Assembly: GCA_944391115.1 (NCBI GenBank)
Contig: CALXSJ010000018.1
Span: 4,803 to 68,802 of the forward strand
From: an uncultured Victivallales bacterium
GTDB lineage: Bacteria > Verrucomicrobiota > Lentisphaeria > Victivallales > UBA1829
Direction of reading: 5' to 3'
DNA: 64,000 nt
Notes under the pieces: model-generated
Told to the model about the DNA's origin: nothing
Seen by the model: only the letters and a program-made list of their open reading frames with translations
Databases searched by the model: none
Position numbers and translations under genes: made by a program
Shown: positions 51,600-51,714 of the stretch, piece by piece
Layout: every line of letters begins with the position of its first letter
Numbering within the stretch: position 1 is the stretch's first letter

Positions 51600-51714
51600 T
51601 CCTGGCGAAGCATCTTCGCCGTTCAATTGATGTTCCTCTTCAATTTCACCGGCTCGAATAGGATGCTCCTATTCGCAGTCTGCGACTGCCGCCGCTGTCA
51701 AGAAAACCTTTCCG
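51586..51714 (+). ncRNA. Predicted retron msr-msd RNA downstream of the RT
   Basis: Perfect 12-bp IR CGGAAAGGTTTT (51586-97) / AAAACCTTTCCG (51703-14); unpaired G51598; hairpins at 51604-20, 51625-45, 51655-75 and 51675-89. Confidence 0.75.

Follow-up and report, generated by a model that had tools for sequence, protein, structure and literature searches.

In canonical retrons, the msr-msd region and the reverse transcriptase (RT) gene, ret, follow one another in that order on one transcript (PMC7736814). Such retrons also carry an effector and an msd that forms one long stem-loop. Retron-Eco1 (Ec86, type II-A) has an RT with NAxxH, VTG and YADD motifs and a noncoding RNA (ncRNA) that is closed by an a1/a2 stem and contains a G after a1, msr hairpins and a structured msd. 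A further relevant system is Retron-Eco2 (Ec67), in which the multicopy single-stranded DNA (msDNA) forms a three-way junction that cages a nuclease and holds the system inactive, and which a phage endonuclease degrades (PMC12916289). Here, we describe a locus within 64,000 nt of DNA from an uncultured Victivallales bacterium (the window, meaning the whole stretch analysed) that is alike to Retron-Eco1 in these RT motifs and ncRNA features. It differs from canonical retrons in that the RT gene comes first and the ncRNA second, with a separate promoter, no effector was found beside the pair and the msd is forked in most members of the family. We consider it likely that positions 51646-51702 are the msd of a minimal, effector-less retron with a trailing ncRNA gene. 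The proposed msd and its helices are given below.

51646 to 51702, forward strand: msd, template for a predicted reverse-transcribed DNA (RT-DNA) of ~57 nt, between msr and a2; the complementary DNA (cDNA) is the minus strand, with its 5' end opposite G51702.
51647 to 51653, forward strand: 5' strand of the msd basal stem, pairing with 51691-51697 in DNA and RNA folds, with a C.C mismatch at 51649/51695.
51655 to 51675, forward strand: arm A hairpin, 8-9 bp; loop 51664-66 reads UGC in RNA and GCA in cDNA, with A:T closure.
51675 to 51689, forward strand: arm B hairpin, 6 bp; loop 51681-83 reads UGC in RNA and GCA in cDNA, with C:G closure (the c-GNA-g form).
51691 to 51697, forward strand: 3' strand of the msd basal stem, from DNA and RNA folds and covariation.

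In the sense of the cDNA (minus strand), 51646-51702 reads CTTGACAGCGGCGGCAGTCGCAGACTGCGAATAGGAGCATCCTATTCGAGCCGGTGA. Arm A corresponds to CGAATAGGA-GCA-TCCTATTCG (51655/6-51674/5) and arm B to GCAGTC-GCA-GACTGC, with G51675 common to both. An earlier note on this DNA had quoted this sequence and drawn from it both hairpins and an imperfect closing stem, all of which are present. Folding the segment with DNA parameters, a check proposed in the same note, recovered the three-way junction as both the minimum free energy structure and the centroid (-16.7 kcal/mol), compared to -7.58 +/- 1.8 kcal/mol for 200 dinucleotide shuffles (z -5.07; 0/200 as good). The RNA version gave the mirror fold (-22.5 kcal/mol, z -3.45). 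Perfect triloop hairpins with a stem of at least 6 bp are in excess across the 64-kb window (52 versus ~22 in first-order Markov shuffles), as are those reading GNA on one strand (8 versus ~2.8 expected), and arms A and B make up one of three adjacent pairs of such hairpins. What sets this pair above chance is its conservation in relatives.

The msd is embedded in a 141-nt stretch that folds in the canonical a1/a2-msr-msd layout (-55.3 kcal/mol, z -4.30), the other parts of which are as follows.

51587 to 51597, forward strand: a1 arm, GGAAAGGTTTT, pairing with 51703-51713 in the RNA fold.
51598, forward strand: candidate guanosine for branching (priming), unpaired, directly following a1 and at the second position of the RT stop codon.
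51603 to 51621, forward strand: msr hairpin 1, UGGCGAAG-CAU-CUUCGCCG, the most conserved element, with a conserved U.G pair.
51625 to 51645, forward strand: msr hairpin 2, stronger in relatives.
51703 to 51713, forward strand: a2 arm, AAAACCTTTCC, from RNA folds and covariation.

The a1/a2 stem comprises 10-11 bp and is followed by a trinucleotide, G11-A12-T13 (G = 51598), that was invariant in 11/11 and 9/9 aligned copies. By analogy with canonical retron geometry (PMC7736814), G51598 would be the priming, or branch, base. The 5' end that the earlier note had assigned to the cDNA, the complement of G51702 just 5' of a2, matches the same geometry.

In total, five RT lineages yielded 12 distinct copies of the ncRNA and, in addition, a decayed one. 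All 12 distinct copies, folded singly, gave the same layout. Covariation was scored on a 9-sequence alignment against a hand-written structure of 51 pairs; the sequences share ancestry and themselves served to derive the structure. The proportion of paired cells was 96.0%, compared to 90.2% in shuffles and 35-52% (51.5% at most) when partners were slid by 1-3 columns. Changes on both sides were found in 15/51 pairs versus 6.5 +/- 1.6 in shuffles, a number that 0/500 shuffles reached. Among the individual helices, a1/a2 (helix 1) was 98.9% paired with one pair changed on both sides, msr hairpin 1 (helix 2) was 100% paired with U.G at 16-34 in 8/9 copies, and msr hairpin 2 (helix 3) was 93.7% paired with two pairs changed on both sides; a further conserved msr U.G pair occurred at 44-52 in 5/9 copies. 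The msd basal stem (helix 4) was 94.4% paired, with 3/6 pairs changed on both sides, and arm B (helix 7) was 100% paired, with 4/5 pairs changed on both sides. Across this alignment the msd arms were almost purely Watson-Crick. Apparent mismatches in the msd arms of copy L082 were traced to a misalignment of one column, as L082 alone folds perfectly.

Conservation extended to the tips of the msd arms. In the 12 copies, 22/22 msd hairpin loops were 3-nt loops of the form UNC in RNA, equivalent to GNA in the cDNA, and none of the 24 msr hairpin loops fitted this pattern. As cDNA, 19 tips read GCA, two GAA (L084, L087) and one GTA (L283), so that GNA spans three middle bases, and it does so across nine stem contexts. 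Conservation of the GNA loops in homologues, which the earlier note had put forward as a check of its prediction, was thus complete in these copies, with no loop arbitrary. In arm B of L283, 4/5 pairs had been replaced and the middle loop base had changed, and the G and A were kept. In L088 and L089, from two genomes of one genus, the RTs share 90% identity and the msr regions 100%; the msd stem is wholly different, apparently swapped or very fast-evolving, and the tip, C-UGC-G, is unchanged. The UGC tip is also present on the short arm A of the window, which falls ~20 nt below the length seen in relatives. Because the tips are kept while the stems turn over, the loop class is, on these comparisons, under purifying selection.

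The gene directly preceding the ncRNA encodes the RT.

50544 to 51599, forward strand: retron-type RT, 351 aa, from its translation, Pfam, PADLOC, PDB and NCBIfam.

Its reading frame is intact and carries the NAxxH (N121-A-G-I-H125), YADD (Y215-D218) and VTG (V262-G264) motifs, at positions that are invariant or nearly so among 20 relatives. The protein matched Pfam RVT_1 (1.6e-19) and 77 PADLOC retron RT models, the highest being RT_X (248.3 bits, 2.1e-74) and RT_XIII (246.8 bits, 1.1e-73), with RT_other at 229.9 bits. Its best PDB match was the Ec86 RT (7.7e-37). The NCBIfam model retron_St85_RT gave 212.9 bits, which is under its cut-off of 235, and Drt2 and Drt3a gave 38-44 bits only, against 213 for the retron model. 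Because four PADLOC RT models nearly tie, the RT is, by sequence comparison, retron-type of an unclassified clade. A spacer of only ~70 nt lies upstream of the gene. Residues 1-55 looked hydrophobic and were considered as a membrane segment, which was rejected when the alignment revealed no membrane-length stretch.

The RT, the a1/a2-msr-msd layout and the covariation all agree with the earlier note in placing 51646-51702 in the msd of a retron-type ncRNA, and we regard it as very probable that the locus encodes a true retron ncRNA arranged in this way. The hairpins could also be read as a terminator/attenuator cluster or a REP-like (repetitive extragenic palindromic) repeat behind the RT gene, with no role as a retron template. 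Their position at the 3' end of a gene fits such an origin, as does the excess of triloop hairpins in the window, and Rfam returned no match at gathering score anywhere in the window, with only chance-level matches near the locus. On the other side, a conserved a1/a2 stem encloses all of the hairpins and is followed by the invariant G, the element comes with a promoter of its own and, past a2, with a separate terminator, its linkage to one RT clade is strict, and its motif occurs once per genome (twice in G165) and is not dispersed. Taken together, these properties make a terminator or repeat origin highly implausible.

Gene order at the locus is RT then ncRNA on the same strand, the opposite of the canonical msr-msd-ret. 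Rather than lying upstream of the RT gene and being co-transcribed with it, the ncRNA starts at the RT stop codon, TGA (51597-99), which sits within its first bases, and has its own promoter in relatives. The elements at its two ends are as follows.

51554 to 51581, forward strand: promoter-like element, -35 TTGCAT (51554-59), 16-nt spacer and -10 TATAAT (51576-81), ending 6 nt before a1.
51715 to 51744, forward strand: GC-rich terminator-like hairpin followed by TTTCC, from the sequence; the corresponding position in relatives holds a hairpin and a T-run.

At the homologous place in L086, a promoter reading TTGACT-16-TATAAT was called (11/12) that ends 7 nt before a1, and a weaker site was called in L104 (9/12). 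The RT stop codon of L086 and L104 is a TGA inside the TTGA of the -35 hexamer. This stop has been lost in the window, where the RT frame continues to the TGA in a1.

These elements suggest the following course of events. In relatives, transcription of the ncRNA would begin at a1 from a near-consensus sigma-70-type promoter that overlaps the end of the RT gene, and would be ended by the hairpin terminator. Pairing of a1 (51587-97) with a2 (51703-13) would place the 2'-OH of G51598 beside the template base G51702. The RT, held by the two msr hairpins, would then copy the msd towards msr, giving a ~57-nt DNA branched onto the RNA; the DNA of relatives would be ~76-80 nt and that of the single-arm forms 44-46 nt. 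After removal of the template RNA, the DNA is predicted to fold into two short arms, each capped by a GNA triloop, on a third helix. The third helix may in part be an RNA-DNA hybrid, because the 3' end of the cDNA stays RNA-paired in known retrons (PMC7736814), or the RT may stop earlier. Under our reading, the GNA caps would be selected as compact, heat-stable and nuclease-resistant tips on this predicted DNA product.

The points that weigh against this reading concern the production of the DNA, the constancy of its shape and the strand on which its tips are selected. With regard to production, the RT-DNA is a prediction from sequence, and the 20 public runs, none of them recorded as RNA, are assembled contigs, which cannot show ends or depth. 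The promoter scan called no ncRNA promoter in the window, because the degraded -35 hexamer matches at only 3/6 positions, nor did the terminator scan accept the hairpin after a2, on account of its weak T-tract. The RT-less copy L273 and the decayed copy L277 indicate that the module is often lost, and the ncRNA copies come from five lineages of one bacterial order and are not independent. The RT-ncRNA pair of the window might accordingly be a decaying or selfish remnant that makes no DNA and whose structure reflects recent ancestry. The state of the -35 hexamer, the loss of the stop codon that relatives have within it, the retention of the ncRNA without an RT in the same-genus genome G042, the reduction of the RT to fragments in G073 and a setting among sugar-metabolism genes with neither effector nor defence island would all fit a relic. 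A relic sits poorly with an RT frame that is intact in all of its catalytic motifs, with the perfect arms and intact a1/a2 of the window (the RT-less copy has a C.A mismatch in a1) and with the presence of a 97%-identical RT cluster (P0002) in other assemblies; moreover, the -10 hexamer matches TATAAT in full, and transcription running on from the RT gene would be a second source of the RNA. We therefore judge a relic improbable and think there is a reasonable likelihood that the window copy makes the DNA.

With regard to shape, the msd is two-armed in 10 copies and has a single arm in L088 and L089. Because of these two relatives, the junction is to be seen as variable and not essential to the family. 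The Y-shaped product that the earlier note had envisaged hence holds for the fold of the window and fails as a constant of the family. Closure of the tips varies likewise: arm A and the single arms of relatives read C-GCA-G, others C-GAA-G, and arm B of L283 G-GTA-C, and neither the A:T pair that closes arm A in the window nor the G:C pair in arm B of L283 is the most stable C:G. Finally, in L191, the one more distant relative whose ncRNA could be recognised, the msd-like part is a single long hairpin with a tip other than GNA.

With regard to the strand, the chemistry of the tips favours DNA. The d(GNA) triloops are very stable, with C:G closure better than G:C by ~3 kcal/mol (PMC3201870). 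A mini-hairpin is formed by GNA only, with all four bases working at N, and it resists S1 and P1 nucleases, which loops of TTC or TTTT do not; its RNA counterpart is far less stable and melts far lower (PMC13037366). The statement in the earlier note that GNA triloops are exceptionally stable in single-stranded DNA agrees with both sources. Sequence does not identify the strand under selection, because GNA in the cDNA and UNC in the RNA are one observation, and C:G closure is equally symmetric. Wobble pairs, which are asymmetric between strands, were tallied by reading the individual folds of the copies by hand. The msd arms of relatives contained three G.U pairs (L086, L088, L089), which are good in RNA and mismatched in cDNA, and three A.C positions (two in the L083 group, one in L082), which are mismatched in RNA and become G.T wobbles in cDNA. 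As a strand test this is a tie of 3 versus 3 from too small a sample. It also restricts to the window the claim that the arms are wobble-free; there, both arms lack any wobble or mismatch. The presence of A.C positions is a mild hint, from sequence, of constraint at the DNA level, and arm A of the L083 group is an unbroken 18-bp helix as DNA and has a 3x3 internal loop as RNA.

The retron reading could therefore be right and the tips still be selected in the RNA, if UNC on C:G were needed on the template by the RT or by an RNA-processing enzyme, for example in positioning, pausing or RNase H trimming, in which case the GNA shape of the cDNA would be a by-product. The complementarity of UNC and GNA in 22/22 loops leaves room for this, triloops occur elsewhere in the ncRNA (the loop of msr hairpin 1 is YAU or UUU), and the three G.U pairs, good in RNA and mismatched in cDNA, fit it as well, together with a U.G in the msd basal stem of 5/9 copies. 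Conversely, the msr loops, which exist only as RNA, never fitted the pattern, and the A.C positions and arm A of the L083 group become paired or unbroken only as DNA. We know of no stable or protein-recognised class of UNC triloop in RNA, and in structures of the Ec86 complex the RT reportedly grips the msr and not the msd tip; both count against an RNA-level role. Selection in the RNA is on balance doubtful, and we lean slightly towards selection of the tips at the DNA level. Of the selection on the DNA product that the earlier note had proposed, what stands is the retention of the loop class (22/22), and what does not is the singling out of the DNA strand.

We further investigated whether the pair is accompanied by an effector. 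Its neighbours in the window encode a periplasmic binding protein, Peripla_BP_4 (49422-50474), and a divergent GntR-family regulator (51826-53394), within a wider region of sugar-metabolism genes that is not a defence island, and PADLOC gave no match on the open reading frames (ORFs) flanking the RT. The neighbours in the other four genomic contexts are carB and a CBM9 protein; a PGA_cap protein; a D-Ala-D-Ala carboxypeptidase; and a glycoside hydrolase and a GDSL lipase. In an all-against-all comparison of ORFs from 13 loci, only the RT was common to all. Thus, no effector gene was found beside the RT in any of the five contexts (1.5-4 kb of flank compared in relatives), the flanking ORFs being different and of housekeeping type. 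Among longer proteins, a search for a fused RT-effector returned no close form and two matches at 37-41% identity. Judged from these comparisons, the moving unit is RT + ncRNA, and the locus therefore falls outside the definition of retrons as tripartite defence systems (types I-XIII). A partner may be encoded elsewhere.

For the cellular role, the possible candidates are an antiphage sentinel working with a partner encoded at another site, or a DNA active on its own. The decoy or sensor role for Y-shaped DNA that the earlier note had raised is pure conjecture. In a more speculative version, to which we give little credence, this gut-bacterial lineage, with a relative on a 175-kb phage contig, would be toxin-free, and the GNA-capped branched DNA would itself be active, e.g., as a long-lived decoy or sponge. 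Its targets would be phage junction-, hairpin- or single-stranded-DNA-binding proteins or nucleases, and stem swaps such as that between L088 and L089 would reflect an arms race over recognition, an extension that we hold to be just as much of a long shot.

The occurrence of the pair was determined at several taxonomic levels. Protein searches gave 16 RT clusters (P0002-P0017) at 53-97% identity, followed by a group of ~400 aa near 51%; the 97%-identical cluster was P0002. Among 201 genomes of the order, close RTs (54-70% identity) were found in eight further genomes (nine loci), and RT matches at E<=1e-40 in 23 (G000 included); one further close RT, L283, was found among 251 genomes of the order. 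The 25-nt motif of msr hairpin 1 occurred in 9/60 genomes of the family, 12/251 of the order and 7/401 of the phylum sample, one of the latter being a chance match in coding sequence. In every copy with an RT present, the ncRNA started 10-69 nt past the end of the RT alignment. Scans of contigs were limited to the best matches: of the best 80 of 590 in genome contigs only L002 was close (63%), with an ncRNA identical to that of L104; of the best 80 of 570 in metagenome contigs none was above 47% identity; and of the best 80 of 291 in viral contigs only L191 was close (51%), a second viral scan with the L191 RT as query returning only L191 itself. A covariance model run over 198 other RT loci found L088 and L089 and otherwise weak matches only (L032, E 0.043; L024, E 0.81; L140, E 0.0099). 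Two candidate ncRNA copies were rejected: L280 (G138), a 3-mismatch motif match within coding sequence and attributable to chance, and L047, where CGAAG-NNN-CTTCG falls in a likely downstream ORF.

The L191 contig is phage-like, 175 kb long, and encodes a 391-aa RT (2647-3822) that is 51% identical to the RT of the window. The region downstream (3823-4000) is strongly structured (z -6.66), with an a1/a2-like repeat, CTTATTG...CAATAAG, and the msr hairpin core CGAAG-NNN-CTTCG lies just downstream of the RT, as in the window. On these sequences, the downstream position of the ncRNA extends to L191, with GNA tips seen only in the bacterial branch.

Two incomplete loci were recorded. L273 (G042, same genus; 1407-1531, minus strand) is an orphan ncRNA nearly identical to that of the window, preceded by the same periplasmic-binding-protein gene. 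Its RT gene is missing except for the last 11 codons, and TACAAT stands in place of TATAAT, in addition to the mismatch in a1 mentioned above. G042, a 95%-complete genome, had no RT match at E<=1e-40. In L277 (G073; 1495-1642), the decayed copy, the RT is in fragments (40% identity over 67 aa) and msr hairpin 2 and arm B are disrupted; arm A retains its UGC tip. Contigs of both forms, with RT and RT-less, were present in a chicken-gut metagenome (run X2, window 51560-51608). In this run, the 30-nt sequence found ahead of the RT-less copy in L273 is linked to the ncRNA on a short contig, and the assembly is broken on either side of the ncRNA, which is what sharing of the ncRNA by two strains would produce. 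A 177-nt contig in run X19 (library type unrecorded) corresponds in its whole length to window 51575-51751, a stretch bounded by the -10 box and the far side of the terminator-like hairpin and holding only the ncRNA gene; a piece of transcript size and a chance effect of read length are both conceivable, and the contig is evidence neither way.

Other repeats and spacers were also observed in the window. A 152-nt direct repeat (18431-18582 and 58745-58896, 99% identical; third copy at 18294-18445, 67%) covers the end of a gene and a pair of perfect triloop hairpins side by side (loops GAG and AGA), then a T-run, and has no Rfam match. Repeated N-terminal prepilin-like leaders of DUF1559-type proteins (9499-9598, 14611-14710, 54449-54548; reverse strand 22948, 28635) are paralogous gene starts and not mobile repeats. 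The AT-rich spacer (25% GC) at 53450-53522, between the divergent GntR-family gene and a xylose-isomerase-like gene, gave a chance-level microRNA match in Rfam and is probably a shared promoter region.

In comparison to described systems, the RT scores best, and almost equally, on the models of retron types X and XIII of Mestre et al. 2020, and the surroundings of the locus differ from both. Type X is defined by an upstream IHF-like/VHL-beta membrane protein (PMC7736814), whereas the upstream gene in the window is Peripla_BP_4. Type XIII is described with a winged-helix/SWIM Zn-finger protein, with or without an ARM/HEAT protein (PMC7736814), neither of which was detected within ~5 kb by Pfam/PADLOC. 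A literature search found no description of a retron ncRNA downstream of its RT, the supplementary tables of PMC7736814, which may list the clade, being outside that search, and a full-text search found no paper linking retrons or msDNA with triloops. DRT3 (UG3/UG8) resembles the present locus in that its RT gene is followed by a structured ncRNA on which the RT depends (PMC8632793). It belongs to a different RT family, in line with the low Drt2 and Drt3a scores given above. To our knowledge, its RNA is without the a1/a2-msr-msd layout.

If the prediction is true, one family departs from three textbook features of retrons, with the template RNA gene behind the RT, no effector and a forked DNA, and the GNA tips would be the first example we could find of a retron product in which selection retains a DNA-specific stability motif. 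This would support the view that the shape of the DNA, and not its mere presence, is read by the cell or phage. If the prediction fails, the locus is one more divergent retron. Annotation pipelines that search only upstream of the RT would miss such ncRNAs, and compact GNA-capped arms offer a possible design rule for nuclease-resistant, retron-derived editing donors. The cDNA tip of arm B, C-GCA-G, is alike to the d(GCGNAGC) mini-hairpins of Hirao and co-workers, arm A of the window differing as A-GCA-T; the known natural examples of these mini-hairpins are in single-stranded DNA replication origins and promoters, not in retron DNA. Retron-Eco2 offers the other point of comparison, as its msDNA likewise forms a three-way junction. 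There, the effector is fused to the RT and the junction is intermolecular, a trimer built from three msDNAs, whereas here no effector was found and the junction is predicted to be intramolecular.

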